Source: a virus. From it: a DNA stretch of 24,845 bases. Position numbers and translations under genes: made by a program. The notes beneath the pieces were generated by a model, which searched no databases, was not told the origin of the DNA, and saw nothing but the letters and a program-made list of their open reading frames with translations. Positions 988 through 20,283 of this stretch are shown here, piece by piece (position 1 is the stretch's first letter; the number at the start of each line of letters is the position of its first letter). The DNA is taken from positions 1 through 24,845 of the IMG/VR virus record IMGVR_UViG_3300048856_000029, one strand, 5' to 3'.

Positions 988-1005
988 TCAATCAGTATTG
1001 ACTTT
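988..1005. promoter_or_regulatory. 18-bp palindromic motif copy 1 (TCAATCAGTATTGACTTT)
   Basis: Reverse complement AAAGTCAATACTGATTGA matches the consensus; overlaps a putative -35 box. Confidence 0.75.
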
Positions 1006-1032
1006 ACACGGTGGCCGCTGTCCGGTTAAACT
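1003..1032 (+). promoter_or_regulatory. Putative sigma70 promoter for the tail tube gene (TTTACA-N18-TAAACT)
   Basis: -35 TTTACA at 1003-1008 and -10 TAAACT at 1027-1032, bracketed by motif copies 1 and 2. Confidence 0.5.
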
Positions 1033-1036
1033 ATGT

Positions 1037-1054
1037 CTAGTCAATACTGAATGA
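1037..1054. promoter_or_regulatory. 18-bp palindromic motif copy 2 (CTAGTCAATACTGAATGA)
   Basis: Matches the consensus; covers the predicted +1 of the tube promoter. Confidence 0.75.
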
Positions 1055-1089
1055 ACAGGCCCCGCGCCTTTTGCGTTAGGAGAAGAACG

Positions 1090-1605
1090 ATGCCCTCGAG
1101 CACTGAGAATGTGAAGCTTGGTGTCTGCACCGTAACTTTCGACACCACCGACCTCGGTTTCACGAAGGGCGGTGTGGAAGTCGAGGTGCAGACCTCTACC
1201 CACGAAGTCACCGTCGACCAGATGGGTGAAACCCCGATCGACGAAATCATCATGGGCCGCACGGTTCAGGTCACTGTTCCGATGGCCGAAACCACGCTCG
1301 AAAACCTGGTCAAGATCATGCCGGGCTCGGTTCTCGTAACCGACACCGTAGACCCGACCAAGAAGAAGGTCGTCGTCTCGACCGGCGTCTCGACCTCCCT
1401 GCTGAAGCTTGCCAAGGAACTCGTTCTGCGCCCCAAGGGCACGAACGGCGCCGACGACTTTACCATCCCGAAGGCTATGACGGCCGGCGCCCTCCAGTTC
1501 GCCTACCAGACGGACCAGGAACGTGTCTTCAACGTAGTCTTCAAGGGCTATGCGGACTCCGATGGTGAGCTTTTCATCGTAGGTGACGAGTCCGCAGCCG
1601 CCTAA
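1090..1605 (+). CDS. Major tail tube protein
   Basis: 171 aa from ATG 1090 with SD AGGAGA at 1078-1083 (better start than 1051). LGFTKGGVEV...VDQMGETP pattern is typical of siphophage tube proteins; precedes the chaperones and tape measure. Confidence 0.85.
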   Translation: MPSSTENVKLGVCTVTFDTTDLGFTKGGVEVEVQTSTHEVTVDQMGETPIDEIIMGRTVQVTVPMAETTLENLVKIMPGSVLVTDTVDPTKKKVVVSTGVSTSLLKLAKELVLRPKGTNGADDFTIPKAMTAGALQFAYQTDQERVFNVVFKGYADSDGELFIVGDESAAA

Positions 1606-1628
1606 TGTTCTTGCCTTCGGTAAAGCAT

Positions 1629-1646
1629 TAAGTCAAAATTGACTGA
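1629..1646. promoter_or_regulatory. 18-bp palindromic motif copy 3 (TAAGTCAAAATTGACTGA)
   Basis: Matches the consensus; its right half forms the start of the terminator stem. Confidence 0.8.
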
Positions 1647-1677
1647 TCGCCATACCAGGCGGTCAGTCTTTTTGTTT
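1641..1677 (+). terminator. Intrinsic terminator after the tail tube gene
   Basis: Stem GACTGATCGCC / GGCGGTCAGTC (11 bp, one G-U pair), 6-nt loop, followed by TTTTTGTTT. Confidence 0.8.
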
Positions 1678-1699
1678 CAACCCCAAGGAAAACTCCGCA

Positions 1700-2056
1700 A
1701 TGGCACCCAAAATTCTCGATCTTGACGCCATCCAGTCGCCCGCAGCCTTCACCATCAAGCTGAAGGGCAAGGAACACGAGATCCGCGAAACCTCGATCGG
1801 CGACTTCATCGAAACCACCCGGATTGTCGAGCAGCACGCGATGAAGCAGGGCGTCGTCGACGATCTGGAGCTGACCATCACACTCATCAGGCGCACCGTC
1901 CCGACCATCCCGGAAGAGGATCTGCGCAGTCTCACCTTCACGCAGCTCCAGGCCATTCAGGACTTCGTCCAGACGGCCAACGGCGAGAAGGCGGAAAAGA
2001 CCGATGAAGCGCCGGTAGGGGAGCCATCCGAGGGAAACGCACCCAAGGCGAACTGA
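1700..2056 (+). CDS. Tail assembly chaperone (lambda gpG-like)
   Basis: 118 aa, SD AAGGA, between tube and tape measure; slippery G GGA AAC at 2032-2038 near the 3' end. Confidence 0.8.
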   Translation: MAPKILDLDAIQSPAAFTIKLKGKEHEIRETSIGDFIETTRIVEQHAMKQGVVDDLELTITLIRRTVPTIPEEDLRSLTFTQLQAIQDFVQTANGEKAEKTDEAPVGEPSEGNAPKAN

Positions 2057-2397
2057 CGGCTATCGATTTCGGCCGACTGTTCGCCAGCGTCGTGGAGAAG
2101 TTCCACTTCAGCCACGACGACATGCTGAAGATGCCGATGCGGCGCTTCTGGTTTTATCTCAAGCAGGTGGACCGGATCAACGCCGAGGAGGATCTGAGGC
2201 TCCTGAGACTTCTTGCAGCCGCCCATAGCGGCGAGACGATTGAGCAGGTGACGAAGGATCTCAATCAGGTCATGGGCCGGATCTATGTCTATGAGCCCAA
2301 AGCCAAATCCTTCGAAGTGGAAGACGAGAACGCAATGGACCCGAACTTTGATCGCGCAGGGCTTCACGCCCTCAAGGGAAAGTCTCGGGTCAAGTGA
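1700..2397 (+). CDS. Tail assembly chaperone G-T fusion via programmed -1 frameshift (about 232 aa)
   Basis: The -1 frame is open from the slippery site to 2397: RTQGELTAIDFGRLFASVVEKFHFSHDDMLKMPMRRFWFYLKQ..., a gpT-like sequence. The GTG at 2092 has no SD. Confidence 0.8.
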
Positions 2398-2415
2398 TAA
2401 GTCAATATTGAATGA
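2398..2415. promoter_or_regulatory. 18-bp palindromic motif copy 4 (TAAGTCAATATTGAATGA)
   Basis: Begins at the first base after the G-T stop codon and lies just upstream of the tape measure RBS. Confidence 0.8.
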
Positions 2416-2427
2416 TTGGCAGGGACG

Positions 2428-5400
2428 ATGACGGCGATTAAGGTTGAACTGGAACTTGTAGACGGCTCGTTTACGACGCGCATGTTGCACGCCGGCGAGA
2501 CGGTCGCCCAGTTCAACCGCAACGTCGCTCGTTCCTCGCCGGAGCTTCGGCGCCTTGCTGCTGCCGGCCAGTCAGTCATCACCTCGATGGAAAAGGTCGA
2601 GGAGCGCTCGCAGAGCTTCCTCGGCACGCTGCGCGACATCACCATCGTTACCGGCGCGATCTCCATCGGCTTCAACAAGCTGATCAATATCCAGGACACC
2701 TGGATCGGCAAGGTCGTCCAGACCAATGCCGAGTTTGAGCGCCTGGTCTACCAGATGCGCTCCATGTCGACGGCTTCCGATCCGATCAAGGAGGCGGCGA
2801 AGGAAGTCGACGGACTGATCGAGGCAGCCAAGAACGCACCATTCTCGCTGAAGGCACTGTCCGACGGTTTCTCCAAGCTCAAGGCATCCGGCACTGATCC
2901 GCTGAAGGGCTCGCTGCAGGCGATCTCCGACGGTGTCGCGGCCTTCGGTGGCACCGACGCTGCTCTTGAGCGCACCATCCTCGGTATCTCGCAGGCGTCC
3001 GGTAAGGGCGTTCTGCAGATGGAAGAACTGCGCCAGCAGATCTCTGAATCCATGCCGCAGGCCGTTTCGCTCATGGCAGCCTCCATGGGTGTCTCGATCG
3101 CGACCTTGGTCGACAAGATCGGCACCGGCCGCTTGGCAGCCAAGGAGTCGCTGGAGCTGTTCTACGCCGAGCTTGACCGCTCCTTCGGTGGCACGGCTCG
3201 CCGGATGATGGAGACCTTCTCCGGTCAGATCGCCCGCACGCAGACGCAGCTCCAGGAATTCGCCCGCATCATCGGCGGGATCGACAAGGACACCGGTCTT
3301 GCGGCCGAGGGCGGCTTCTTCGCGACCCTCACAGACCAGATCCGCGATCTCAACGACGCACTGTCCTCGCCGGGCGGTGAGAATTTCGCCCGCTCGATCG
3401 GTCAGGGACTGACCGCGATCATCGGCTACCTGCGCTCCGCTGTCGAAACTGCCTACGAGTGGCGCCAGGCTATCGGCAATACGGCCGAGTTGCTCGCCTT
3501 CGTCGCCGGCCTGCGCATTCTTGGTGGCGCGCTCTCCACGATCCGCGCCGGCTACCAGAACGCCATGATCGGCCTCACCATGCTGCGCGCCGGTTTCGCC
3601 CAGGCCAATGCCGCGGCAGCACTGCATCAGCGTGCGCTGGCAAATTCTGCCGTTTCTATTGCATCGGTCGATCGCGCCGCCCGCCTTGCTGCGGCGACCG
3701 GTATGCGTGCGATGATCGGCACGATGGTTCGTGTGGCTCCCGTGGCCGGTGTCCTCGGGCTTGCAATCTACGAGGTCGCCGACGCCTTCGACGTCTTCGG
3801 CAGCCGCGGCAAGGAAGCCATCGAGACCCTGCGCGAATTCGGCCAGCTTTCGGCCGACCAGGTCGGCAAGGCACAGGACAATATCGAGAAGCGCCAGCGA
3901 GATCTGAACAAGGAGCTCGCGCAGATCACCTACTCGGCGCAGCACTCCAACTATGGCTTCATCAGGCAGAAGGATCGCCCTGCTGCTATCGCCGCCGAGA
4001 TCGAGCGCCAGAAGCAGTCCGCAAACATTGCAGAACGCCAGAAGGAGATTGATGAGGATCGTCTGAAGCTTGCTGAAGCTCGCGAGAAGCTTGCCGAACA
4101 GCAGGCCGAAAAGGACGCGGATCGCCTGCTGCGCGCCCAGGACAAGGAGCAGCAGAAGGCGCAGCGCACTTATGTCGAGACGCGCAATGCGATCCAGAAG
4201 CGCTACGACGACGAAATCAAGATGGCCGAGAAGACCGGGAAGAAGGTCTCCGAGCTTGAGCGCGCACGCACCGAGGAGCTGAAGAAGAACGCGCTCGCCT
4301 ATTACGAGGAGCAGATCAGTTCCGTTCAGAAGGCTATCGACGGCATCAATAGCGCCGCGGTCGATGGCAAGCTGACGGATGCTGGCACGATCGCTGTCGG
4401 CCGGCTGAATGAGCAGATCGACCAGCTCCAGGCGCGCAAGGACGCGCTGAAGAACTTCGGCGAGATGCCCGACATCGGCGATACCGACCAGTCAGCGAAG
4501 GGCTTCGAGAAGCTCGAGAAGGCTGTCGAAAAGGCAAAGACCGAGGTTGAATCTCTCGAGGATCAGATCGGCGGGGCTGACGACGAGCTGGCTGATTTTC
4601 AGGCCAAGTTCGCCAATGGCGCCTATGGCGACAAGTCGCTCGACCAGGTGCGTCAGCTTGGCGAGGAAATGGCCAACCTGCTGATCCGCAAGAAGGCGCT
4701 CGACGACATCAACGAGGGTGCCAAGGATATCCGGCAGGACATCGAGCAGGCGCGGATCAAGATGATCGAGCGCCGCATGGAGCTGCAGGAGAAGGCTGCC
4801 GGCCGCGAGCTGACCGATGGTGAGAAGATCGCCATGCGGATCAAGGAGGGTTACTACAAGGGCTTTGGCCCGAACAACCCGGCGCAGAAAGCCGTCGAGG
4901 GCATGATCGAGGGCCTCTCCCTTCAGGCCAGCACGGCTGCGAAGGTGGGTGACGTCCTGCGTGGCAACACCTTCGGCGACCACACGGCCAACAAGATCCA
5001 GACGGTCAACGACAAGCTCGCCGAGATGCTCAATCTCGTGAAGGGCATCGGCACTGGCGTCAACGGCATCAGCTTCGACAACATGGGCGCGCCGAACACG
5101 GGCGCTGCCTCGACGGCTGCCGGTTGGACGCGACCGAACAGCGTGATGTTCTCGGGCGACCTCTCCGGCCGCTATGCAGACATCAGGGGCAAGGCGAACC
5201 TCATGTCGAGCAATATGGCTCGCTGGGGCGATCCTCGTGCACCTGGCTGGAAGGAAGCCAACCTCACCTCGATCGCGACCAGCTCCGGCATGACAGCATC
5301 GGTTCACAAGGCCGCTGCCGCAGCATTCCAGGGCTTCATCAAGGAGCTCGAGGCAAGCGGCTACAAGATCAAGTCGCTCGGTGGTCAGAACACCCGCAAC

Positions 5401-7176
5401 AAGGTCGGCCGCAACTCGCTATCCGAGCACGCCTGGGGCAACGCCATCGACATCAATCCTGCCGAAAACCCCTTCGGTCAGGATCTGAAGACCAATATGC
5501 CGATCAACATCTCCCAGCTGGCTGCCAAGTATGGCCTGTCGTGGGGTGGCGATTGGAAAAGCGTCAAGGACGCAATGCACTTCGAGTGGACCGGTATCGG
5601 CGCCGACGAGGAAAAGCCCGCTGGTCCGCTGAAGTCGGCCGCGACCTCGCTGCCGTCTGCCTTGCCGACCTTCTCGGCGGAAGACCAGGCGAAGATCAAC
5701 GAATACATGGAGCGCCGCAACAAGCTCCAGGACGAGTTCCTCAAGCAGACGACCGAGCTGACCGAGGAAGAACGCAAGGTCATGGAAGCCGAGAAGGCCC
5801 AGGACGGCGCCGACTACAAGTCCGGCCTCCTGAAGAAGATCGAGACGGCCAAGGAGAGCCTCGACGGTCTCGACAAGAACTATCGCGCGACCATGCAGCT
5901 CATCAACGATGGCGCGTTCGGATCGAAAGATCCCAACACCGAGTTGAACAAGGAGCTGCTGCGGATCTCCAAGGAGCTGGACGCTGTCGAGAAGGGCCGT
6001 GCTGACCGCAAGGAGGCTTCCGGCAATATCGAAAACGCCGAATTGCGCATCAAGGAGCAGGAGCTCCAGATGGAGCGCCGGATCGCCGAGCTGAAGCAGA
6101 AAGCGGCCAATCCGAACGTCAAGCTCGACAGCTCCGGCCTGGTCGAAATGCGCGAATCGCTGGACAAGTATCTGACCGACGTTGCGACCGTCTACGGCAA
6201 GGATACGGCCCAGTATCAGGCCGCGACGCAGCGCAAGACCGAGATCCTGAAGATGTTCAGCCAGCAGGAGGTCTGGGAAGAGACCGCTGCCAGCTCCGAG
6301 CGCACGCGCGCCATCCAGCAGGGTCTGATGGGTGAGATGTCCTCGCGCCAGGCTGCAATGCAGCAGGAGCTCGATATCATCGACCAGAAGATGGCCTACT
6401 ACCGCAATCAGGGCACGCTCGACGTTCAGATGACCGAGCAGTTCGAGCGCGAGAAGGCCTCGATCCGCGCCAAGTATGCACAGCAGGATCCAATCGGCGC
6501 CAAGATGAAGGAATGGGGCGACCTGCAGGGCAATCTGAACCAGGCGGCCGCTGGCTGGATGGATTCGATGGCTGATGGTCTGGCTGGTCTCATCACCGGC
6601 ACGGGCAATCTGCGTCAGACGCTCCAGGGTATCGCCAATGACATGGTCAAGATGCTGCTCAAGTATGCAATGAGCGGCCTCATGGGCAAGAAGGGCGGTG
6701 CAGGCGCTGCGGTCGGCAAGGCTGGCAAGGGTGGTGCTGCGGCTGCGACAGGCGGCAAGGGCAAGATGTTCCCGGCTTTCCATGTCGGCGGTATCGCAGG
6801 CTCCGGTGCTCGCATGGGTCGTATGGTCAATCCGGCCGTTTTTAAGAATGCCAGGAAGTTCCACACCGGCGCAAACAGCTTCGGTGCCGGTCGCCTGATG
6901 CCCGGTGAGATGCCGGCGATCGTGAAGAAGGATGAAGGCATCTTCACGCCCGAGCAGATGAAGGCACTTGGCACGGCTGCACTCAGCAACAACCAGTCGG
7001 TCCAGATCAATGCGCCCGTGACGGTCAATGCGAACGGCGGAACGCCCGAGCAGAACGCTGACCTCGCCAACCAGGTCGCAAAGCAGATGGAAGGCTCGAT
7101 GCGCGGGATCGTCGCCGACGAGCTGATGAAGCAGATGCGCCCTGGCAACATGCTCAACAACGGAAGGACGCGATAA
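2428..7176 (+). CDS. Tape measure protein with internal M15-family peptidase domain
   Basis: 1582 aa from ATG 2428 (SD AGGGA). N-terminal tape-measure domain (ISQASGKGVLQMEELRQQISE), long coiled coils, SEHAWGNAID...WGGDW..DAMHFEW Zn-peptidase motifs, and a C-terminal FHxGG...GEMPAIVKKDEGIFTP region. Confidence 0.92.
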   Translation: MTAIKVELELVDGSFTTRMLHAGETVAQFNRNVARSSPELRRLAAAGQSVITSMEKVEERSQSFLGTLRDITIVTGAISIGFNKLINIQDTWIGKVVQTNAEFERLVYQMRSMSTASDPIKEAAKEVDGLIEAAKNAPFSLKALSDGFSKLKASGTDPLKGSLQAISDGVAAFGGTDAALERTILGISQASGKGVLQMEELRQQISESMPQAVSLMAASMGVSIATLVDKIGTGRLAAKESLELFYAELDRSFGGTARRMMETFSGQIARTQTQLQEFARIIGGIDKDTGLAAEGGFFATLTDQIRDLNDALSSPGGENFARSIGQGLTAIIGYLRSAVETAYEWRQAIGNTAELLAFVAGLRILGGALSTIRAGYQNAMIGLTMLRAGFAQANAAAALHQRALANSAVSIASVDRAARLAAATGMRAMIGTMVRVAPVAGVLGLAIYEVADAFDVFGSRGKEAIETLREFGQLSADQVGKAQDNIEKRQRDLNKELAQITYSAQHSNYGFIRQKDRPAAIAAEIERQKQSANIAERQKEIDEDRLKLAEAREKLAEQQAEKDADRLLRAQDKEQQKAQRTYVETRNAIQKRYDDEIKMAEKTGKKVSELERARTEELKKNALAYYEEQISSVQKAIDGINSAAVDGKLTDAGTIAVGRLNEQIDQLQARKDALKNFGEMPDIGDTDQSAKGFEKLEKAVEKAKTEVESLEDQIGGADDELADFQAKFANGAYGDKSLDQVRQLGEEMANLLIRKKALDDINEGAKDIRQDIEQARIKMIERRMELQEKAAGRELTDGEKIAMRIKEGYYKGFGPNNPAQKAVEGMIEGLSLQASTAAKVGDVLRGNTFGDHTANKIQTVNDKLAEMLNLVKGIGTGVNGISFDNMGAPNTGAASTAAGWTRPNSVMFSGDLSGRYADIRGKANLMSSNMARWGDPRAPGWKEANLTSIATSSGMTASVHKAAAAAFQGFIKELEASGYKIKSLGGQNTRNKVGRNSLSEHAWGNAIDINPAENPFGQDLKTNMPINISQLAAKYGLSWGGDWKSVKDAMHFEWTGIGADEEKPAGPLKSAATSLPSALPTFSAEDQAKINEYMERRNKLQDEFLKQTTELTEEERKVMEAEKAQDGADYKSGLLKKIETAKESLDGLDKNYRATMQLINDGAFGSKDPNTELNKELLRISKELDAVEKGRADRKEASGNIENAELRIKEQELQMERRIAELKQKAANPNVKLDSSGLVEMRESLDKYLTDVATVYGKDTAQYQAATQRKTEILKMFSQQEVWEETAASSERTRAIQQGLMGEMSSRQAAMQQELDIIDQKMAYYRNQGTLDVQMTEQFEREKASIRAKYAQQDPIGAKMKEWGDLQGNLNQAAAGWMDSMADGLAGLITGTGNLRQTLQGIANDMVKMLLKYAMSGLMGKKGGAGAAVGKAGKGGAAAATGGKGKMFPAFHVGGIAGSGARMGRMVNPAVFKNARKFHTGANSFGAGRLMPGEMPAIVKKDEGIFTPEQMKALGTAALSNNQSVQINAPVTVNANGGTPEQNADLANQVAKQMEGSMRGIVADELMKQMRPGNMLNNGRTR

Positions 7177-7526
7177 TGCCTCTTCAGACCTTCGATCCGC
7201 CCGTCGGTCCTTCGCCGGGCACCCGCAAGGGCCGGGACATGGATATCCTCGAAGCCGAGTTCGGTGACGGCTATTCGCAGCCGACGCCGAACGGCTACAA
7301 CCATATGCGGCGCACCCTGTCGCTCAACTGGGACGGCCTGTCTCGCCGGCAGGCCGACTATATCTCGCAGTTCTTCGAGGAACACGGTGGCACCAAGGCG
7401 TTCTACTATACGCCGGCCAACGAGACGAAGCCGGTTAAGTGGATCTGCTCGTCCTGGGAAGAGAGCGTGCAGGGCATCACCAAAATCACCGCGGAGTTCA
7501 AACAGAGCTTCACGCTTGAAAGCTAA
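7176..7526 (+). CDS. gpM: Distal tail protein, lambda gpM-like
   Basis: 116 aa with FGDGYSQ..PNG.N and HGG.KAFYYTP motifs; directly follows the tape measure gene. Confidence 0.9.
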   Translation: MPLQTFDPPVGPSPGTRKGRDMDILEAEFGDGYSQPTPNGYNHMRRTLSLNWDGLSRRQADYISQFFEEHGGTKAFYYTPANETKPVKWICSSWEESVQGITKITAEFKQSFTLES

Positions 7527-7528
7527 GC

Positions 7529-7557
7529 TTGCTGATCAGTCAATACTGACTTATCAT
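7529..7557 (+). promoter_or_regulatory. Putative promoter TTGCTG-N17-TATCAT with motif copy 5 (7536-7553, TCAGTCAATACTGACTTA) in the spacer
   Basis: CTTG-type -35, 17-bp spacer, ATG 7 nt after the -10. The extended palindrome TGATCAGTCAATACTGACTTATCA spans 7533-7556. Confidence 0.7.
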
Positions 7558-7563
7558 TAAGGT

Positions 7564-8271
7564 ATGGTGACAATCTATCAATCGGCTCAGGGGCTGAACC
7601 CCAAGGCAATCATCGAACTGTTCCGTCTCGACACGACGCGCGTCGGTGGCGGGATGATGTTCTTTGTCCAGGGCACGCAGACCGATAAGCCGATCTCTTT
7701 TGGCAATCAGGAATACCAGCCGCTCGACATCGAGTTCGAGGGCCTGGAAGTGTCGGGGCAGGGCGCCTTGCCGACCCCGACCATTCGGCTAGCCAACACC
7801 GATGGCTTGGCACAGAGCGCGATCAACACCTGGGGCGATCTCCTCGGTTGCGAGATCCGCCGCATTCGCACCTTCAAAAATTTCCTCGACGGCGAGCCAG
7901 ATGCGGACCCGACGGCCTTCTTCGGTCCCGACGTCTTCGTCATCGAGCGCAAGGCTGTCGAAAACCCGGTCTTCATCGAATGGGAGCTCTCCGCTGCCAT
8001 CGACCAGGAAGGCAAGCGCATCCCCGGCCGACAGGTGATCCGTGACACCTGCCTGTGGCGCTACCGGGCCTGGACGGGCTTCGGCTTCGACTATTCGCGG
8101 GCTCAGTGCCCTTACACGGGCAACCAGTTTTACGACATCAACAATCTGCCGACGACGCCGGACAAGGACCGGCCCTCGCGCACGCTCTCCTGCTGCAAGA
8201 CGCGCTTCGGAGCGAACGCACCTCTTCCGTTCGGCGGATTTCCAGGCGTTGGAAGGATTAGCGGAGAATGA
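7564..8271 (+). CDS. gpL: Minor tail protein, lambda gpL-like
   Basis: 235 aa with IELFRLD, GALPTPTIRLAN, RRIRTFKNFLD, CLWRYR...CPY...CCKTRFG and LPFGGFPG. Confidence 0.92.
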   Translation: MVTIYQSAQGLNPKAIIELFRLDTTRVGGGMMFFVQGTQTDKPISFGNQEYQPLDIEFEGLEVSGQGALPTPTIRLANTDGLAQSAINTWGDLLGCEIRRIRTFKNFLDGEPDADPTAFFGPDVFVIERKAVENPVFIEWELSAAIDQEGKRIPGRQVIRDTCLWRYRAWTGFGFDYSRAQCPYTGNQFYDINNLPTTPDKDRPSRTLSCCKTRFGANAPLPFGGFPGVGRISGE

Positions 8272-9005
8272 TCGCATCAGTCGCTGAAGCAGCGAAGGCT
8301 CACGCACGCGCTGAATATCCGAAGGAGGCCTGTGGCGTCGTCGTCGCGGGCGTCTACTACCCCTGCAAGAACATTGCCGAGGATCCGACGCAGGATTTCG
8401 TCATCGATCCGGCCGACCTCGCCGGCGCTCTGACGAATGGCAAGCTGGAGATGGTCATCCATTCGCACCCGAACGGGCCGGTCGGTCCCTCGCGCGCCGA
8501 TATGGAGGGTCAGATCAAGTCGGGCGTCGCCTGGGGCCTCATCGTGCTCGACGAGGATCGCATCGGTGATCCCCTCGAGTGGGGCGGCAACACTCCGATC
8601 GCGCCCCTGCTCATGCGTCCGTTCATCCACGGCATCTATGACTGCTATTCGCTAATTCGCGAAACGTATCTGCTCGGCAAGGAAGGCTGCGCGGCACAGG
8701 ACATTGACTGGCCTTTCGACCCGATCGAGCTGCCGATGGGCTGCCGCGACGACGCCTGGTGGGACAAGGGCGAGGATCTCTACATGGAGAACTTCGGCCC
8801 GGCCGGCTTCAAGCAGATCGACTTCACCGAAGCGCAGCCCGGCGACCTGTTCCTCTGCTCGATCCGCTCCAGCAAGCTGAACCACGGCGGCCTGCTGATG
8901 CCGAACAGCCTGGTCATGCACCATCTCCCCAACCGTCCTTCCCGTCGCGAGCCTGCTGGGCTCTGGGCGCGCCAGGCTGACATGTGGCTGCGCTATGCTC
9001 CGTAA
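8268..9005 (+). CDS. gpK: Tail assembly protein, lambda gpK-like (JAB/MPN plus NlpC/P60)
   Basis: YPKEACG and HSHPNG..PS..D (JAB motif); DCYSL...HGG...HH (NlpC/P60 catalytic pattern). Confidence 0.92.
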   Translation: MIASVAEAAKAHARAEYPKEACGVVVAGVYYPCKNIAEDPTQDFVIDPADLAGALTNGKLEMVIHSHPNGPVGPSRADMEGQIKSGVAWGLIVLDEDRIGDPLEWGGNTPIAPLLMRPFIHGIYDCYSLIRETYLLGKEGCAAQDIDWPFDPIELPMGCRDDAWWDKGEDLYMENFGPAGFKQIDFTEAQPGDLFLCSIRSSKLNHGGLLMPNSLVMHHLPNRPSRREPAGLWARQADMWLRYAP

Positions 9006-9609: not shown

Positions 9610-9610
9610 C

Positions 9611-13921: not shown

Positions 13922-13923
13922 TC

Positions 13924-13952
13924 TTGATCATCAGTCAGTATTGACTTATGTT
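13924..13952 (+). promoter_or_regulatory. Putative promoter TTGATC-N17-TATGTT with motif copy 6 (13931-13948, TCAGTCAGTATTGACTTA) in the spacer
   Basis: Same register as the promoter at 7529; ATG 13959 lies 7 nt after the -10. Confidence 0.7.
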
Positions 13953-13958
13953 GAAGTT

Positions 13959-14675
13959 ATGGCGAAACAACTTTTCTCGGATGGGGTGACGGGGCGAACA
14001 GCAATCTTCGACCCCGCCAACCCCGACGCCTTCGCAAACCCGCGGGCGAACCTGCAGTCGGTCTATTTTCACAGCGACCTCGACTATGTTGGCGTCGCCA
14101 AGGTCATCGATGTGTCGATCACCCACGTCGCGCGTGCTGCGGGCGGTGCGTCGGCGCTGACTGGCTATCCGCAACCCAGTTATCCGCAAGGCGAGGTTTC
14201 GCCGCTGACGCACGGGCTCGGATACAAACCGTTCGCGATCGCCTTCGTCAACGGGCAGATGCTGCCTGCCAACACACAGATCCAGTCGGCCGGCATGAGC
14301 TTCCGCACTGTTGCCCTGCAAATCACCGACACTGCCGTCGCGGTCTACGAGACGGCCTGGGTCTACGGCACGTCGTTGCCGGCTATAACCATCGCCTACA
14401 AGATCGTCCTCTTCACGCCACCTTTGGTTCAGTCCGGCGACAAGACCCTTGAGATCAAGCCGTCGAGCTTCATCGCCTCGCGCGGAAAGCTTAACACCGC
14501 CTACAAGTATGTGCGCCGCGACCCGGTCTCGCCGGACTTCAGCTTGACAAAAGACAAGACGGCCGACTGCTCCAATGGCTCCTTCCGCATCGTGACAGCA
14601 CAGGGCGACGTCATCGAGCGCGCCCCATACAACGGCAGCTTCCAGGGCACTCCGGGAATAGGAGTGGAATTTTGA
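13959..14675 (+). CDS. Putative tail tip-associated virion protein
   Basis: 238 aa from ATG 13959 (the TTG at 13941 lies inside the motif). Beta-rich, with VYFHSDLDY and THGLGYKPF; immediately downstream of J. Confidence 0.6.
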   Translation: MAKQLFSDGVTGRTAIFDPANPDAFANPRANLQSVYFHSDLDYVGVAKVIDVSITHVARAAGGASALTGYPQPSYPQGEVSPLTHGLGYKPFAIAFVNGQMLPANTQIQSAGMSFRTVALQITDTAVAVYETAWVYGTSLPAITIAYKIVLFTPPLVQSGDKTLEIKPSSFIASRGKLNTAYKYVRRDPVSPDFSLTKDKTADCSNGSFRIVTAQGDVIERAPYNGSFQGTPGIGVEF

Positions 14676-15499
14676 GCTTCTTTGCCTCGAACAACCGCAT
14701 CCATATCACCAACGCTGCCGGCGAAACCGTATTCGATACCGATAAGCCGATGCCGCACGTCATCCAGCGGATTCAGAAGTCGATCTCCGTCACCTTCCCG
14801 AATATCCCGAGTAGCTGGCGCAACGTCATGATCCCGATCGGCCCGACGCCGATGTGCCGGCGCCGCGAGTTCCAGTGGGTCTGTCGGCAGGAATGGGTCT
14901 GTCGCACCGAGCAGCAATGCACCCTGAAGATGGTCAACGGTGTTCTGCAGCAGGTCTGCGAACCCGTGCAGCGCTGCGGCTACGAGCAAGTATGCGGCAA
15001 CGAATGGGTCGATATCGACGGCGATGGCTACCAATACCATTCGAAGTATACCTATAGCCCGGTTGAGTGGTCGCAGGTCGTGGAAATCGGCCCGGTGGTC
15101 GATGGTCTCGACGCTGACTTTCTCCTGGTCAACGCAGTAGCGGCTCGAACCGCACAGGGTGCTCTGTTCGACACGGGGCCGGTTCCCTGCGGCCTTCCCC
15201 TGGGCCAGACCTTCGTCGCAAACAACTCCTCGATCATCGAGACCGCAAGCGACGTGGCGAACGGCCAGCCTTGGATGACCCGCATCATGTCGATCTACGT
15301 CGAGAATGGCATCATCAAGGCTCAGTTCAAGCACTCCAATCGCGGCTTCGAAGCGCGGTCGAAGTGGGACGGCGGCTTGTATTGTGAAGGCATGTCTGAC
15401 ACCCCGCCCATCGCTCCGGGCGCGCCAGGCAGCTCTCCCTCTGTCGCCAGCGCCTACAATTTCAACCTCGACATCGTTGTCGGCAAGTTCACTATCTAG
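14672..15499 (+). CDS. Putative tail tip/receptor-binding accessory protein with Cys-rich insert
   Basis: 275 aa, TTG start with SD GGAG and a TTGA overlap; I.NAAGETVFDTD N-terminus resembles post-J proteins; contains a seven-Cys periodic segment. Confidence 0.6.
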   Translation: MSFFASNNRIHITNAAGETVFDTDKPMPHVIQRIQKSISVTFPNIPSSWRNVMIPIGPTPMCRRREFQWVCRQEWVCRTEQQCTLKMVNGVLQQVCEPVQRCGYEQVCGNEWVDIDGDGYQYHSKYTYSPVEWSQVVEIGPVVDGLDADFLLVNAVAARTAQGALFDTGPVPCGLPLGQTFVANNSSIIETASDVANGQPWMTRIMSIYVENGIIKAQFKHSNRGFEARSKWDGGLYCEGMSDTPPIAPGAPGSSPSVASAYNFNLDIVVGKFTI

Positions 15500-15511
15500 G
15501 AGCCCCTGCAA

Positions 15512-15826
15512 ATGCCACTGACCTACGCAACGCCGCTTCTTTACCCGTCCGTTCCGGCAACCCAACAGCCGATCGTCAAGGACGGAAAGATCGTCGCTTG
15601 GATCGTGAAGATCTCCATGACGCTGAACGGCATCGTTCACTCGGCGACCGAATATTACGAGTCCGCGGAGGATGAGATCCTCCCCGAAGAAACCCACGAC
15701 GCCGGCCCGCTGCTGGAAAAGATTTTGCTCAAGATGGACCTCGAGCGCGACCTCAACAACCGGTGCGCCCGAGAGCTTGAGCAGAAGGCCTACAACCTCA
15801 ACAGAGCAACAGGAGTATCGAAATGA
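15512..15826 (+). CDS. Hypothetical protein (104 aa)
   Basis: SD AGGAG at 15498-15502; codon usage matches neighbours; ATGA-coupled to the next gene. Confidence 0.7.
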   Translation: MPLTYATPLLYPSVPATQQPIVKDGKIVAWIVKISMTLNGIVHSATEYYESAEDEILPEETHDAGPLLEKILLKMDLERDLNNRCARELEQKAYNLNRATGVSK

Positions 15827-16071
15827 CGACTATCGTTGAACCGCCGAAATGGCAGCCGCCCGAAGCAGATCCGCTGGAAGGCATGGTCCGCTACAAGGAC
15901 ATCTGGGTCGATGAAAAGCTGACCGACGCCGAGAAGGAGAAGTTCTACCAGGACTTCATCGCTGCCCGGCCGAAGGCTCGCAAGAAGCTTCCGCTGTTTA
16001 TCGGCGTCGCCGCTGCCGTGGCCCTTGGCCTCGTCGGACTCTACGCACACTACCAGTTGGGGCTGTTTTAA
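15823..16071 (+). CDS. Small membrane protein with C-terminal TM helix
   Basis: 82 aa, SD AGGAG; a basic patch RPKARKK followed by hydrophobic LPLFIGVAAAVALGLVGLY. Confidence 0.7.
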   Translation: MTTIVEPPKWQPPEADPLEGMVRYKDIWVDEKLTDAEKEKFYQDFIAARPKARKKLPLFIGVAAAVALGLVGLYAHYQLGLF

Positions 16072-16089
16072 CAGGGGCCCCTAAAACAG
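16063..16089. repeat. Inverted repeat CTGTTTT(AAC)AGGGGCCCCTAAAACAG over the stop codon
   Basis: Near-perfect palindrome with a 3-nt bulge; no clear U-tract follows. Confidence 0.5.
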
Positions 16090-16092
16090 TTG

Positions 16093-16138
16093 TGGACTTG
16101 CCGCTTTGCGTCTGGGATAATAAGTCACTACTGACTGA
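16093..16138 (+). promoter_or_regulatory. Putative lysis-cassette promoter TGGACT-N17-(TGn)GATAAT plus motif copy 7 (16121-16138, TAAGTCACTACTGACTGA)
   Basis: -35 at 16093-16098, extended TG at 16113-16114, -10 at 16116-16121; the motif covers the predicted +1. Confidence 0.6.
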
Positions 16139-16160
16139 TTCCCACACGCAAAGCAGGCAA
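16098..16160 (+). repeat. 63-nt hairpin enclosing motif copy 7
   Basis: TTGCCGCTTTGCGTCTGGGA (16098-16117) pairs with TCCCACACGCAAAGCAGGCAA (16140-16160) with one mismatch and one bulge. Confidence 0.85.
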
Positions 16161-16165
16161 AGACA

Positions 16166-16504
16166 ATGGCTGGCACCGCATCCCCGTTGACACTACACCA
16201 GGCTCGCGTCGCCATTGTAGTCGGCGTTCTGACCATCGCCGGCTTCATCTGGAGCAGCGTCAGCTATCTGAAGGAAGGTGAGAAGAAGGATCTCCAGCAG
16301 GACGGCCGCATCAGCCAGTCCGAGATCAACCTCACCGAGACCAAGGACTCGATCAACAAGCTGACAGTCAAGACCGATGAGCTGACCAAAGCCGTCGTTC
16401 GTCTGACGACGGTCATCGAAACCCGTCCGACGTCCGATCGAGCCGCTCTCGATCGTCAATACTACCCGCTCACCATTGACCGTGCTTCCGCTGAAGTTCG
16501 GTGA
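16166..16504 (+). CDS. Single-TM coiled-coil membrane protein, holin/antiholin candidate
   Basis: N-terminal TM (VAIVVGVLTIAGFIWSSVSYL) followed by a heptad-rich region; directly upstream of the endolysin candidate. Confidence 0.55.
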   Translation: MAGTASPLTLHQARVAIVVGVLTIAGFIWSSVSYLKEGEKKDLQQDGRISQSEINLTETKDSINKLTVKTDELTKAVVRLTTVIETRPTSDRAALDRQYYPLTIDRASAEVR

Positions 16505-16522
16505 TCAGTCAATACTGATTGG
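16505..16522. promoter_or_regulatory. 18-bp palindromic motif copy 8 (TCAGTCAATACTGATTGG)
   Basis: Begins at the first base after the upstream stop codon, just before the endolysin SD AGGAGA. Confidence 0.8.
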
Positions 16523-16537
16523 ACAGGAGATTTCGCA

Positions 16538-17029
16538 ATGAACACTGGTCTCGAATGGCTCGACAAGGCCTACTCCTATATCGGCGAACGAGAAATTAAG
16601 GGTGCCAAGCACAATCCACTCATTCTGCGCATGTGGGATGCGATCAAGTCGTCCTGGTTCAAGGATGATGAAACGCCCTGGTGCGCCGGCTTCGTCGGCC
16701 TCTGCCTCGAAGAGTCCGGTATCAAGTCGACCCGCTCCGCATCCGCGCTCTCCTACGAGAAGTTCGGCGTCAAGCTCGATCGGCCGGCCGTCGGCTGCAT
16801 CGTCACCTTCAAGCGTTCCGGTGGTGGACATGTCGGCTTCGTCGTCGGCAAGGATCGCTACGGCAACCTGATGGTCCTGGGCGGCAACCAGGGCGACATG
16901 GTCTCCATCAAGCCGTTCTCGACCGGTCGCGTCACGTCCTATCGCTGGCCGTCCGTCTATCCGGCAGAGCATCGCTTCGATCTGCCGATCATCAACAGCG
17001 ATGGCAGGGTCTCCACGAATGAAGCCTGA
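16538..17029 (+). CDS. TIGR02594-family Cys/His hydrolase, probable endolysin
   Basis: GEREIKG..HNP.I, DDETPWCAGFV, GGHVGFV and LGGNQ motifs; lies among holin and spanin genes. Confidence 0.85.
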   Translation: MNTGLEWLDKAYSYIGEREIKGAKHNPLILRMWDAIKSSWFKDDETPWCAGFVGLCLEESGIKSTRSASALSYEKFGVKLDRPAVGCIVTFKRSGGGHVGFVVGKDRYGNLMVLGGNQGDMVSIKPFSTGRVTSYRWPSVYPAEHRFDLPIINSDGRVSTNEA

Positions 17030-17444
17030 ACTGCAATCGCTAATTCGCGAAATTGCCGATGAGCTGAAGGTCGAGGCGGGATACCGCTTCGGCCCGTCCG
17101 CGCTCCAGGCACGCCTGGACAATCTCGATCTCGCCGAGAGCGCAATCGTCGGCGAGGACGTGATCGAGGATCTGCTCTACGTCGATCTGCTCGAAGCCAA
17201 TGGCTACGACGAGCTGCCGGACGTCATCCACTACACCATGATCCGCAATGCTTTCGACCTCGGTGTCGTGCGCGCCACCCTGATCCTTCAGGGCGCCATT
17301 GCCAAGATCGAGCCGCGCCATCACCGCAGCGGCAATCTCGAGCTGCTGGATATCGATCTCGCTCACAAGCACGCGGCTGTTCTCGGTCATCACCTGGCCG
17401 AGCGCCGTGCCTTTTTCGCTCTGCGTCAGGGAGGCATCCTTTGA
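17019..17444 (+). CDS. Hypothetical soluble protein within the lysis cassette
   Basis: 141 aa from ATG 17019 (17001 also possible); fills the gap exactly and overlaps both neighbours. Confidence 0.65.
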   Translation: MKPELQSLIREIADELKVEAGYRFGPSALQARLDNLDLAESAIVGEDVIEDLLYVDLLEANGYDELPDVIHYTMIRNAFDLGVVRATLILQGAIAKIEPRHHRSGNLELLDIDLAHKHAAVLGHHLAERRAFFALRQGGIL

Positions 17445-17725
17445 AGGACGAACTGATGAACAAGCTGTTTCTCGACAACTGGCCCAAGCGACGCAGATGG
17501 ATGCAAGTCATTCTCGCGTGGGCGCTCGCTAACGCGCAATACATCATCATCTGGGGTCGAGACAGCGGCCTGCACGAAAACGCGCTTATAGCGCTTCTCA
17601 CGCTGATTGCGTCGATCCTCGGCACCTATGTTTTCGGCGCTACCTGGGATGATCGCGACAAACGCCGGCACTTCTCCCGCGACCGTGACCGCGAGATGGA
17701 CGTGACGGAAGGGCAGGGCGAATGA
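17441..17725 (+). CDS. Holin (2 TM)
   Basis: RRR followed by two hydrophobic segments, YVFGATWDD, and a highly charged C-tail; SD GGAGG before the TTG. Confidence 0.7.
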   Translation: MKDELMNKLFLDNWPKRRRWMQVILAWALANAQYIIIWGRDSGLHENALIALLTLIASILGTYVFGATWDDRDKRRHFSRDRDREMDVTEGQGE

Positions 17726-18123
17726 CCGCGCTTCTCGGCATCTTCAATTTCGTCAAAGGTCTCAAGGTCGAGACTATCGCCTTCGTGCTCCTCGTTCTGC
17801 TTGCTCTGTCCGCGACCGGCTATGCGGCCTGGACAAAGAAAAGCCTCAAGGCAGCCGAGGCCGACCTGGTGCTCGAAAAGCACCTGCGAGCCACAGCCGA
17901 GCGGAAGTTGATCGACGCTCAGGAGCAGTTCGACAAGCGCCTGAACGACATCAAGGCGCTCGAAACCACCCGCAAGACCAACCGCCTCGAGATCCAGCCG
18001 TTTGAGCTGCGGATCGAGGAGCTGACCAGAGAGGACGCCGATGCGCCCAAGAGCTCTTTTGTTGATCGCCTCAATGCTGTCAACGCTGACCTTAACCGCA
18101 TGTTCGAGCACAACAGCCGGTAA
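17722..18123 (+). CDS. rz: i-spanin (Rz-like)
   Basis: N-terminal TM followed by a periplasmic coiled coil; its 3' end overlaps a lipoprotein gene. Confidence 0.8.
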   Translation: MTALLGIFNFVKGLKVETIAFVLLVLLALSATGYAAWTKKSLKAAEADLVLEKHLRATAERKLIDAQEQFDKRLNDIKALETTRKTNRLEIQPFELRIEELTREDADAPKSSFVDRLNAVNADLNRMFEHNSR

Positions 18124-18358
18124 GCCGGCTCCCTCGATCGCGGTCAAGCAATACCACCCTGAACTGCCGGACACGCTGGTTCTGGAAGACGAGAAATTCA
18201 TCGTCTGTCCGAACGAAGATCCGGCGAAGCTTGTCTGCATGGATCATACGAACGCTCAGAAGGTCAGCCGGAACAAGGTGAAGACCTTGAAATGGGCGAA
18301 AGATGCTCGTGCCGTGATGGACTACTACACCCGATCCGGTGCCGTGGTCAGTAAATAA
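18041..18358 (+). CDS. rz1: o-spanin lipoprotein (Rz1-like)
   Basis: Signal peptide with lipobox LTAC (Cys21), Pro-rich body, SD GAGGA; overlaps Rz by 83 bp in the +1 frame. Confidence 0.82.
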   Translation: MRPRALLLIASMLSTLTLTACSSTTAGKPAPSIAVKQYHPELPDTLVLEDEKFIVCPNEDPAKLVCMDHTNAQKVSRNKVKTLKWAKDARAVMDYYTRSGAVVSK

Positions 18359-18360
18359 GA

Positions 18361-18388
18361 ATATCATCTACTAGAGATTAGATAATAT
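18361..18388. promoter_or_regulatory. 10-8-10 AT-rich inverted repeat upstream of the A1-like gene
   Basis: ATATCATCTA-ctagagat-TAGATAATAT (9 of 10 positions pair); overlaps the ATG. Confidence 0.55.
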
Positions 18389-20237
18389 GACTGACGATGG
18401 ACCGGATTGTGTCTTTACCGAAGCAGATCTTCAATTCTCGAAGATCTACAACGACACCGAAAGCTTTCCGAACCTCACGGACGTTGCTCTTGAACTGGGC
18501 CTGTCCTACCAGACTGTCCGGAACAAGGCCTGCATCCTGAAAGGGAAGGCCAAGCGTGGCGAGAAGGTTCCGGTCCTGATCTCGCGTGCGATCGTCGCCA
18601 GGGAGAAAGATTCCGAGGCTCCGAAGAACCATGCCAACGCTCGCGCCGATATGCTGCGCGAGGAGATCCGCGAGCTTCTCACCCGCTCGCGCTACCCGGT
18701 CATCAATCCGGATGCCGTTGTCATCGACGCTTTCATCTCGACGAAATACGACCGGCTCACCGGCAAGCAGAAGAATATCGAAGGGACGCCGCGCACCTGG
18801 CTGACCGACACGCTGCGCGTCGAGAGCACCGAGGATCCACGCGGTCGCGTCTTCATCTTCACCGGCGCCCAGAACGATGCCGATGTCGACCAGGACTTCT
18901 GGAAGAACCTGCAGGCCTATGCCGATTTCCGCGACGCAGACATTGTTGTCGGTCCCGGCACATACGAGACCCAGTGGTGGAGCGAGTCCAATCCGACCGT
19001 TCGCGCTTATGCGCCCGAGATCCAGGAATACCTCTGCTTCGGGCAGATGGAGCTCGGCGATAACTTCGTCTTTGCCGGCGAGATGAACATGCTGCCGACC
19101 GCAAGCCGGCCGATCAGCGACCTGACCACCTATTCACGCGGCAAGTGGACTGTGTTTCCGCACGCCAAGATCCAGCTCAAGTCTGTATCGTCGCTCGATC
19201 CCGCAAAGCAGGCCCATCAGGTCATGACCACGGGCATGGTCACGAAACCGAAGATCATTCCGCGCAAGGCAGGCATCAAGTCGCTCGCCTATCATACGAT
19301 CGGCGCGACCATCGTCGAGTTCGACCAGGCCGGCCGTCTCTTCTGTCGGCAGATCACGGCAGGCGAGAATGGGGCCTTCTACGACCTGGAATTCTACGTT
19401 GCCGACGGCGACATCTCCCTGCATGACGGCGTCGATGCCATCACTCTCGCCGACTTCCACACAGCCAAGATGGTCGCACGCCACGCTGACGTGGTCTTCC
19501 GGCTGCCAGACAGCATTATTCGAACGCTGAACGCTCGCCGTGCGTTCGTCCATGACGTCTTCGACAACCAGAGCCGCAATCATCACCACGTCCACGACAA
19601 CGCCCATTCCTACGAGATGGCCTATCGAGGCAGGGAAAGCGTCTTCGAGGAGATTCGCGGCGTCGTGCAGATCCTCGATGAGCTGTCGAGCACGGTTGCC
19701 GTTACGGTCGTCGAGTCCAATCACGACATTGCTCTTGAGCGTTACGTGCGCGAGGGCCGCTACCGCAACGATGGCGTCAATATCCGGCTTGGTCTCCAGC
19801 TCGAGGATGCCTATCTCTCCTGGCGCGAGCAGGCGGCAGATGCGATCGACGCCGGCCGTCGCCCGAACAGCTTCTCGCTCCTCGAATACGCGGTCAACAT
19901 GGTCGCGGAGAAGGATGCGGTCGAGCTTTCCGATGTTGAATGGGTGCATGACGGCTATAGCTGCGTCGTCAACGGCGTGGAGTGTGGGCATCACGGCTTC
20001 AGGGGCGCACAGGGCGCGCGTGGCACCGTCGCGGGCTTTGCAGCGCTCGGCTACAAGATGACCATCGGCGACAAGCACGTCCCGGAGATCCTGGACAACG
20101 TCTACGTGGCCGGCGTCATGAACTTGCATCAAGGCTACAACAAGGGGCCATCCGCTTGGGCGGTCGCCCATGTGGTTCAGTATCCGGACGGCAACCGCAC
20201 GATCATCACGCTCCAAGACGGTTACTGGCGCGGATAG
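18387..20237 (+). CDS. HTH plus calcineurin-like metallophosphoesterase, T5 A1-like protein
   Basis: 616 aa. N-terminal HTH (LTDVALELGLSYQTVRNK), FTGAQN segment, and phosphoesterase motifs ADFH, HDVFD, ESNHD, HHG, GDKH. The A1 resemblance is from recall and has not been searched. Confidence 0.65.
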   Translation: MTDDGPDCVFTEADLQFSKIYNDTESFPNLTDVALELGLSYQTVRNKACILKGKAKRGEKVPVLISRAIVAREKDSEAPKNHANARADMLREEIRELLTRSRYPVINPDAVVIDAFISTKYDRLTGKQKNIEGTPRTWLTDTLRVESTEDPRGRVFIFTGAQNDADVDQDFWKNLQAYADFRDADIVVGPGTYETQWWSESNPTVRAYAPEIQEYLCFGQMELGDNFVFAGEMNMLPTASRPISDLTTYSRGKWTVFPHAKIQLKSVSSLDPAKQAHQVMTTGMVTKPKIIPRKAGIKSLAYHTIGATIVEFDQAGRLFCRQITAGENGAFYDLEFYVADGDISLHDGVDAITLADFHTAKMVARHADVVFRLPDSIIRTLNARRAFVHDVFDNQSRNHHHVHDNAHSYEMAYRGRESVFEEIRGVVQILDELSSTVAVTVVESNHDIALERYVREGRYRNDGVNIRLGLQLEDAYLSWREQAADAIDAGRRPNSFSLLEYAVNMVAEKDAVELSDVEWVHDGYSCVVNGVECGHHGFRGAQGARGTVAGFAALGYKMTIGDKHVPEILDNVYVAGVMNLHQGYNKGPSAWAVAHVVQYPDGNRTIITLQDGYWRG

Positions 20238-20240
20238 CGA

Positions 20241-20283
20241 TCAGTCAATACTTATTGATCGTTGTCGGTGAGGCTGTTAAAAT
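20241..20283 (+). promoter_or_regulatory. Motif copy 9 (20241-20258, TCAGTCAATACTTATTGA) overlapping promoter TTGATC-N17-(TGn)TAAAAT
   Basis: -35 at 20255-20260, TG at 20275-20276, -10 at 20278-20283; upstream of SD AAGGAG. Confidence 0.7.

Follow-up and report, generated by a model that had tools for sequence, protein, structure and literature searches.

A dispersed near-palindromic site at the gene junctions of a Rhizobium-type phage-plasmid, a candidate operator of a genome-wide repressor regulon

The stretch of DNA analyzed here (the window) comprises the first 24,845 bp of the 115,723-bp virus record IMGVR_UViG_3300048856_000029 (59% GC). It carries genes for the major tail protein, tail chaperones, tape measure, further tail proteins, lysis, and DNA transfer, and an 18-bp near-palindromic site recurs between these genes. 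The phage is an RHEph10/SSU5-like phage-plasmid of the Rhizobium type, with repC, parA, and a T5-A1-like DNA-transfer gene, and the lambdoid framing adopted in an earlier note on this DNA does not apply to it. RepC and ParA are both encoded in the genome, as are ParB-like proteins in the form of two ParB/Srx-domain proteins. The window is listed in one DNA sequencing run, probably the soil metagenome it came from, and in no RNA run. The nearest records are the Rhizobium phages RHph_N1_10/N1_15/N2_6 (N1_10 below), RHEph10, Y2_11, B1VFA, V1VFA-S, and X66. The announcement of B1VFA and V1VFA-S reports parA, parB, repC, and a near-identical plasmid, pRlX6, and describes the two phages as possible prophage-plasmids; the repeat goes unmentioned in it (PMC12509600). 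We found no paper that describes the motif.

A search of the window with TMAGTCAATAYTGACTKA returned exactly nine positions, each with 0–3 mismatches, and these are the nine copies that had been noted before (Table 1). As a chance control, 100 dinucleotide shuffles gave 0 matches.

Table 1. Copies of the dispersed site and the promoter- and terminator-like features around them in the window.
Feature	Position	Strand	Context
Candidate operator copy 1, TCAATCAGTATTGACTTT	988..1005	+	First of two tandem copies spaced by 49 bp, 5' of the major tail gene (ATG 1051); right end abuts/overlaps the -35
Major-tail promoter, TTTACA-N18-TAAACT	1003-1032	+	Consensus match
Candidate operator copy 2, CTAGTCAATACTGAATGA	1037..1054	+	Starts 5 nt past the -10 TAAACT, covering about +1 of the major-tail promoter
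Candidate operator copy 3, TAAGTCAAAATTGACTGA	1629..1646	+	3' of the major tail gene; right half doubles as 5' arm in an intrinsic-terminator-like hairpin
Terminator-like hairpin and T-run	1641..1678	+	Stem 1641-1668 with 11 pairs, then TTTTTGTTTC; reuses the half-site GACTGATC / GGTCAGTC
Candidate operator copy 4, TAAGTCAATATTGAATGA	2398..2415	+	Fills the whole gap from the stop of a chaperone open reading frame (TGA 2395-2397) to the tape-measure gene; no visible promoter
Promoter TTGCTG (7529-7534) - N17 - TATCAT (7552-7557)	7529..7557	+	Candidate operator copy 5 (7536-7553, TCAGTCAATACTGACTTA) fills the spacer
Promoter TTGATC (13924-13929) - N17 - TATGTT (13947-13952)	13924..13952	+	Candidate operator copy 6 (13931-13948, TCAGTCAGTATTGACTTA) fills the spacer; 3' of the J-like tail gene
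Candidate operator copy 7, TAAGTCACTACTGACTGA	16121..16138	+	Directly after the -10 of TGGACT-N17-GATAAT (16093-16121); before the first lysis-region gene (ATG 16166)
Candidate operator copy 8, TCAGTCAATACTGATTGG	16505..16522	+	Begins right after the stop TGA 16502-16504; 15 nt before ATG 16538; no visible promoter
Candidate operator copy 9, TCAGTCAATACTTATTGA	20241..20258	+	3' of the A1-like DNA-transfer gene; right end and flank (TTGATC, 20255-20260) form the -35 of TTGATC-N17-TAAAAT (to 20283)

The whole record contains 44 sites at ≤3 mismatches and 46 at ≤4. Under a crude gene model, 39 of the 44 are intergenic while intergenic DNA makes up 8.9% of the genome (binomial p = 7e-36), and both third-order Markov genomes and second-order intergenic simulations gave 0 matches; the intergenic enrichment suspected from the window thus extends over the genome. 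The five copies scored as genic sit at the very 3' end of a gene, within its final tens of bases and immediately 5' of the next start, and within the window no full copy lies inside a coding sequence, as had been stated. The most repeated intergenic 9-mers all derive from this one 18-bp motif, and no second repeated intergenic motif was found in this genome. The wider statement that all gaps of at least 30 bp hold a copy is true in part: with the same gene model, six of seven such window gaps do, but the gap at 2057–2091, between two tail-chaperone open reading frames, is empty, and genome-wide the share is 30 of 72.

The sites stand 7–50 nt 5' of start codons and precede genes of every temporal class, structural genes included. 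The gaps 5' of repC (34016–34134) and parA (99545–99735) are without a site, and so is a block at genome positions 84,000–95,700, in which small genes lie mostly on the minus strand with many gaps of 80–375 bp. These site-free gaps and this block are candidate regions for expression in lysogeny or for separate control. Tandem pairs recur at a centre-to-centre distance of 48–49 bp (988/1037, 49 bp; 51015/51063, 48 bp; 106994/107043, 49 bp), and two other pairs are spaced by 63 bp (111738/111801) and 34 bp (38059/38093). The recurring 48–49 bp distance hints at cooperative or looped binding. At site 75704 (genome 75704–75770), a degenerate second copy, GATAAGTGAACACTGAACAGG, follows 23 nt later, just before the ribosome-binding site of the next gene.

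The consensus of the ~44 copies is tGA-T[CA]AGT[CA]A-ATA[CT]-TGA[CTA]T[GT]A-(tca), a near-palindrome of 18–24 bp. In the position table, T1, A3, G4, T5, A7, T12, G13, A14, and T16 are near-invariant, whereas positions 2 and 6 (A/C), 17 (G/T), and 15 (C/T/A) are degenerate and the centre reads A-T-A-Y. From these near-invariant and two-fold degenerate columns, the half-sites each read T-M-A-R-T-M-A, with their centres 11 bp apart, about one helical turn. The left flank T-G/A-A is strong (T at -2 in 33/44, G/A at -1 in 42/44, A at 0 in 29/44), but the right flank TCA occurs in only about half of the copies; the GA...TC extension noticed in the window is therefore real but lopsided. Mixed TAAGT/TCAGT halves, also reported from the window copies, are present in 27 of the 44 sites and in both orders (A..G in 18, C..T in 9).

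Symmetric use of the site does not hold once the copies are oriented by the direction of local transcription. Mirrored columns then differ significantly (4 vs. 15, p = 6e-5; 8 vs. 11, p = 0.001; 6 vs. 13, p = 0.007; 1 vs. 18, p = 0.007), and the copies beside minus-strand genes (95918, 96994, 100667) match the plus-gene form when flipped. On the sense strand, G's are retained and C's are often swapped for A or T. This asymmetry may be a functional polarity, or it may merely reflect the C-poor, A-rich composition of leaders. The motif with its left flank supplies stops in all three frames (TGA-TAA; TAA in copies of the GTAAAT form; two TGA triplets in the right half), and at several junctions (e.g., window 2395–2415 and 16502–16522; genome 62096–62116) the flank TGA is the stop of the upstream gene, a role taken in relatives by the motif's own TAA.

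Promoters were called as matches to sigma-70-like hexamers, and the placements of the site relative to them were sorted into four classes. In the first class, the palindrome fills a 17-bp spacer (7536, 13931, 109033, 112763). In the second, a CTATTA, CTATAT, or TAAACT -10 lies 2–6 nt 5' of the site, so that the site covers about +1 (1037, 16121, 44510, 51063, 54966, 60111, 102549, 111801). In the third, the TTGACT or TTGATC of the site is itself the -35 (20241, 34585, 38059). The fourth class has no promoter (2398, 16505, 62099), and its two members in the window start at the base following a TGA stop, as had been observed. Promoter-like boxes had been said to touch seven window copies; this stands for 988/1037, 7536, 13931, 16121, and 20241, but at 1629 the overlap is with a terminator. 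Two sites flank the promoter of the major tail gene (988/1037), and two flank that of the major capsid gene (111738/111801). Most sites overlap ordinary promoter elements, and an elongation roadblock is not needed for those.

The placement varies yet always lies inside the RNA-polymerase footprint, a pattern typical of operators. Activator sites and promoters, in contrast, keep a fixed position, with activator sites normally at a fixed distance from the -10. No fixed -10 downstream and no fixed -35 upstream of the motif appear in the position table, and for this reason the idea of a single-element promoter was dropped. More broadly, it is extremely unlikely that the motif is itself the promoter for a phage sigma factor or RNA polymerase. 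The relatives do annotate a sigma-70-type factor beside cobS, together with several other DNA-binding proteins, and the motif is long (21–24 bp) with halves that differ when oriented by gene direction. However, no second conserved element stands at a fixed spacing on either side, ordinary -35/-10 hexamers flank the motif in several registers, and the homologue of the 'sigma' gene here has no sigma-domain match in Pfam; in a Pfam and PHROGs search of ten candidate regulators, the 186-aa 'sigma-like' protein was without a sigma domain. In addition, the copies of B1VFA are near-perfect palindromes and those of N1_10 are often perfect; as a palindrome gives no direction, a self-sufficient promoter is excluded.

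Site 1629 lends its right half to a hairpin as the 5' arm, and the 3' arm consequently repeats the half-site. The arms at 1629–1678 read GACTGATCGCC...GGCGGTCAGTC and are followed by the T-run. This operator-in-terminator layout is also visible in N1_10 and RHEph10. In this phage (genome 112763), in N1_10, and in B1VFA, the capsid gene is followed by a comparable arrangement of a site and then a hairpin. Site 16121 lies at the tip of a far longer inverted repeat at window 16098–16160 (CTTGCCGCTTTGCGTCTGGGA ... TCCCACACGCAAAGCAGGCAAAG), which includes the Shine–Dalgarno-like purines before ATG 16166.

Some of these features would suit an RNA hairpin that marks processing sites, stabilizes mRNA ends, or modulates the translation of the next gene: copies stand just 5' of ribosome-binding sites, mirrored positions differ by gene direction with the three minus-gene copies fitting when flipped, G.U pairs are slightly commoner on the sense than on the antisense strand (38 vs. 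23), and some copies lie within longer hairpins (the terminator at 1629; 16121). The pairing itself makes such a role very unlikely. The Watson–Crick share over ten possible pairs is 64% among the 44 sites, and A.G and C.T mismatches dominate two stem positions. The pair (2,17) is Watson–Crick in 13 of 44 copies, A.G in 18, and C.T in 9; the pair (6,13) has 14 A.G mismatches and zero compensating change; and the pair (4,15) has 8 G.A and 10 G.T. No compensatory change or pairing covariation was found at mirrored positions among the 44 copies. Folding of the 24-mers as RNA gave a mean minimum free energy of -4.1 kcal/mol, with 16 of 44 copies weaker than -3 kcal/mol and six without structure, and the 44 copies showed no difference between sense and antisense folding. 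Furthermore, the spacer and -35 copies stand upstream of the local transcription start, and the high identity within the genome together with the lineage-specific variation argues for a protein that reads the sequence. Conservation applies to the letters of the site rather than to the ability to pair. No stable, compensated stem, such as an RNA hairpin, a REP-like (repetitive extragenic palindromic) element, or a terminator element would have, emerged from the same figures. The absence of covariation, the weak hairpins, and the lineage-specific palindrome variants support the earlier preference for a double-stranded DNA (dsDNA) site, probably read by a dimeric phage protein.

The relatives carry the site in their own forms. 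Copies in N1_10, RHEph10, and Y2_11 read T[CA]A[AG]TCAATATTGA[CT]T[TG]A, and those in B1VFA read TAAGTAAG-NN-CTTACTTA, as near-perfect 8+2+8 palindromes with the centres GTGC and GCAC both represented. They occupy syntenic gaps: before portal, in tandem before capsid and major tail, after capsid, before tape-measure, and between M and L. At the M–L junction, all five diverged genomes show TTGnnn - 17 bp - TA(C/T)(C/A)AT, and the spacer holds the palindrome, whose letters vary by lineage (TCAGTCAATACTGACT, TCAGTCAATATTGATT, TAAGTAAGCACTTACT). The layout of the 7529–7557 promoter, with -35, palindrome, and -10, is repeated in N1_10, RHEph10, Y2_11, and B1VFA, and the two tandem copies 5' of the major tail gene are spaced by 48 bp in the same four phages (49 bp here). 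The promoter-less site between the chaperone and tape-measure genes recurs in each of the five relatives aligned, some of which use its TAA as the stop codon.

When 596 Gb of prokaryotic genomes were scanned for the exact pattern, 82 loci over all phyla were returned, which by our own estimate is about the number expected by chance; the exception is clusters that lie, in Hyphomicrobiales assemblies, on contigs of ~100–118 kb. In Faunimonas pinastri A52C2 (4.2 Mb), all matches at ≤2 mismatches (22 forward, 18 reverse) fall on one 109-kb contig, and in Phyllobacterium myrsinacearum AN3 (6 Mb), all such matches (17 forward, 16 reverse) fall on one 118-kb contig. Both contigs carry a capsid homologue (72% and 69% identity, respectively) beside a site and one helix-turn-helix (HTH) homologue each. 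Since the matches are confined to element contigs in these two isolate genomes, the motif does not define a host regulon, and these relatives reside as plasmid-sized replicons; a known host regulator's motif, an explanation that the earlier note had left for checking, was not found on the host chromosomes at ≤2 mismatches. Boxes for IHF (WATCAANNNNTTR), CtrA (TTAA-N7-TTAA), CcrM (GANTC), alphaproteobacterial LexA, and RirA did not fit when their consensus sequences were compared with the motif by eye.

Restriction of ~44 dispersed palindromes to the element and their lack on host chromosomes would also be expected of DNA organization, with the copies acting as partition or condensation sites (e.g., for the two ParB/Srx-domain proteins) or as a self-mark telling phage from host DNA. 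ParA and ParB-like proteins are encoded, and promoter-less copies exist. We nevertheless regard this as quite improbable: the register with promoter hexamers (spacer, +1, -35) is conserved across diverged lineages, the sites lie 7–50 nt 5' of starts, and the mirrored positions differ by transcription direction, for none of which organization has any need.

The most likely candidate for the binder is a 132-aa XRE-type HTH protein, whose gene lies outside the window, between repC and cobT (genome 34737–35135). The earlier note had suggested the A1-like protein as a possible HTH binder; that protein belongs to phrog_1745 ('DNA transfer protein') without an HTH match, and the XRE-type protein beside repC and cobT is the likelier one. 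By tblastn, the 132-aa protein is present in every Rhizobium relative, with X66 annotating an XRE HTH, and also in Klebsiella and E. coli SSU5-like phage-plasmids, among them CYRAN_45 of Cyrano, a 'putative repressor' (28% identity, E 1e-4). The expression of CYRAN_45 in LF82 lysogens is 10-fold over the prophage background (PMC9928086, Table 1). An exhaustive HMMER search gave 1127 representatives of the family, and a shared-word protein search reached 8 relatives. Pfam HTH_3 (PF01381) matches 34 of 62 aligned homologues, and the family profile matches PDB 8bny 'immunity repressor' (3e-4) and C.AhdI (1y7y).

The AlphaFold model of the protein (predicted local distance difference test, pLDDT, 80) consists entirely of helices, five in an N-terminal HTH domain (helices 12–82) and three more after it. 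The closest structural neighbours of the fold, all at weak E-values, are C-proteins, ClgR, lambda cI, and 434 Cro; Foldseek found no match in the PDB at E ≤ 1e-3, and the C-terminal module (96–132) is without a strong solved match. A homodimer model scored 0.55 compared with 0.06 for the best control, with an interface at residues 96–132, and its runs gave at least 60% contact agreement and a partner pLDDT of at least 78. Among proteins solved as pairs of one chain, 20 of 30 attained this mark, as did 1 of 23 solved as single chains; these counts hold only roughly, since the alignment was our own, and the good score may stem from resemblance to XRE dimers already solved. On this modeling, the 132-aa protein appears to dimerize via its C-terminal helices. 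A copy of the motif lies ~135–155 nt 5' of the 132-aa gene in this phage (34585), B1VFA, and Phyllobacterium, with the right half TTGACT in each. N1_10 and Faunimonas have looser variants 5' of the HTH gene, seen by eye and unflagged by the pattern scan, that end in TTGACTTA. In Cyrano, a GTAAGCACTTAC core is located at the repressor promoter, just after a -10.

We consider it probable, at roughly 0.6, that in this temperate phage-plasmid the motif serves as operator for a repressor regulon spanning the genome, bound by a phage-encoded dimer, most likely the 132-aa XRE protein, and silencing the lytic genes. The analysis establishes the sites with their statistics, promoter geometry, conservation, and confinement to the element; from these we infer that a protein binds them, which protein it is, that it represses and does not activate, and that it acts in lysogeny. 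Among the transcription units with sites are those of the tail, lysis, DNA transfer, replication, nucleotide metabolism, and packaging. The dimer would bind the ~44 dsDNA sites and, seated at the -35, in the 17-bp spacer, or at +1, would occlude initiation, and the lytic genes would stay off while the element replicates as a plasmid through RepC/ParA. The strongest late promoters, those of the major tail and major capsid genes, would be held by the two sites that bracket each of them, and the promoter-less minority (2398, 16505, 62099) may be backup roadblocks or cooperative or looping partners.

Several points weigh against this repressor regulon. The promoter-less copies are unexplained by promoter occlusion, and the 2398 junction site among them is conserved in five lineages. 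The asymmetry of mirrored positions relative to transcription is a feature that a purely symmetric dimer site would not predict. The 132-aa protein itself has no Pfam match above threshold and matches solely phrog_8 at 2.5e-4, and a comparison of the recognition helix with the motif variant over six elements gave no simple covariation. The gene model is crude and based on GC at third codon positions, and the promoter calls are consensus matches only. Finally, the same geometry could suit a regulator of the lytic cycle instead of a lysogeny repressor.

Such a regulator, an activator, timing factor, or Cro-like switch that is possibly not the XRE protein, would coordinate early, middle, and late transcription during lytic growth. 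The sites precede genes of all temporal classes, the relatives annotate several DNA-binding proteins besides the sigma-70-like factor, and the link to the XRE protein is circumstantial. We find this reading unlikely, however, since the spacer, +1, and -35 placements occlude RNA polymerase where activators are normally fixed from the -10, the plasmid-maintenance promoters have no site, and Cyrano lysogens express their homologue of the candidate binder (PMC9928086). It is likewise doubtful, but conceivable, that one protein does two jobs. It would use operators at promoters and act as a polar elongation roadblock at the conserved promoter-less junctions (2398, 16505), with the asymmetry as the trace of that polarity, and the 48–49 bp tandem pairs would loop or bridge to silence the plasmid-prophage as one condensed domain. 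If this were true, the promoter-less copies would be the first palindromic 'stoperators'.

In the case of P1, a plasmid-prophage, the master repressor C1 acts at many scattered operators over lytic promoters, and the repressor gene itself is controlled; the operators are asymmetric, 17 bp long, and read by monomeric C1. The present element resembles P1 in having many sites of one type at promoters across a plasmid-prophage (44 sites, 39 intergenic; RepC/ParA; resident relatives of 109–118 kb), but its site is an 18–24 bp near-palindrome with two T-M-A-R-T-M-A halves, and its candidate binder is an XRE HTH protein with a predicted homodimer. In L5, a cluster A mycobacteriophage that integrates, the gp71 stoperators are 13-bp asymmetric sites oriented with transcription, at which the repressor blocks elongation. 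Tens of copies in short gaps, some of them promoter-less within operons, are common to both, and the mirror asymmetry seen here may correspond to the transcription-biased use in L5 or may come from a C-poor sense strand in leaders. Here, however, the site is palindromic and most copies lie on recognizable promoters. The system lacks the combination of asymmetric site and monomer that defines P1 and L5, and it is therefore a variant of these systems rather than a member.

Compared with the XRE and C-protein repressors (lambda cI, 434 Cro, C.AhdI, C.Esp1396I), the candidate shares the five-helix HTH_3 fold, a predicted symmetric dimer, half-site centres about one turn apart, and a site 5' of its own gene, but those repressors use 2–6 operators at one or two loci and here ~44 sites cover nearly all lytic units. 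The SSU5-like Cyrano/pLF82 has the same gene order (HTH gene - cobT - cobS - Pol III alpha - SSB - exonuclease - RecA), a homologous HTH protein, and TAAGTA..TACTTA-type palindromes between genes, including the GTAAGCACTTAC core at the repressor promoter. It differs in that its half-sites have another sequence and spacing, its palindrome being 14 bp (TAAGTA-NN-TACTTA) rather than 18 bp, the HTH proteins are only ~28% identical, and a second palindrome, AAACAA-N-TTGTTT (3968, 30483, 33304), stands at several gene junctions with no counterpart in this genome. By analogy with these systems, the best-supported description is a regulon that probably works like the dispersed operators of P1 C1, with some copies like L5 stoperators, but in which the site is palindromic and its reader an XRE-type dimer.

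Phage-plasmids of the SSU5/RHEph10 type occur widely, in hosts that range from enterobacteria (pHCM2, pLF82/Cyrano, resistance-carrying Klebsiella elements) to rhizobia, and we found no description in the searchable literature of how these elements are silenced as plasmids. One site type on nearly every lytic unit together with a small conserved XRE protein, whose own gene has a site 5' of it, gives a testable model of the lysogeny switch. The sites double as a promoter map, and the variant of the palindrome could predict immunity groups. In rhizobial inoculant strains, the motif flags resident plasmids that are dormant phages.

The predicted transcription start of the 7529–7557 promoter is the A of ATG 7564, and that of the 13924–13952 promoter is ATG 13959. 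At 7552–7566 and 13947–13961, the A of the ATG lies exactly 7 nt past the end of the -10, and the sole Shine–Dalgarno-like purines lie 1–2 nt from the ATG; translation of these two tail genes may use leaderless transcripts. In the relatives, the same spacer-type promoter is followed by a leader of ~15–20 nt, as estimated from the alignment, with a clear AGGAG. In addition, the genome encodes a tRNA-Cys(GCA), across which the crude gene caller put a spurious minus-strand open reading frame. This tRNA gene is 87 nt long (genome 60327–60413) and lies ~200 nt 3' of site 60111 and its TTGCAG-N17-TATTAA promoter.

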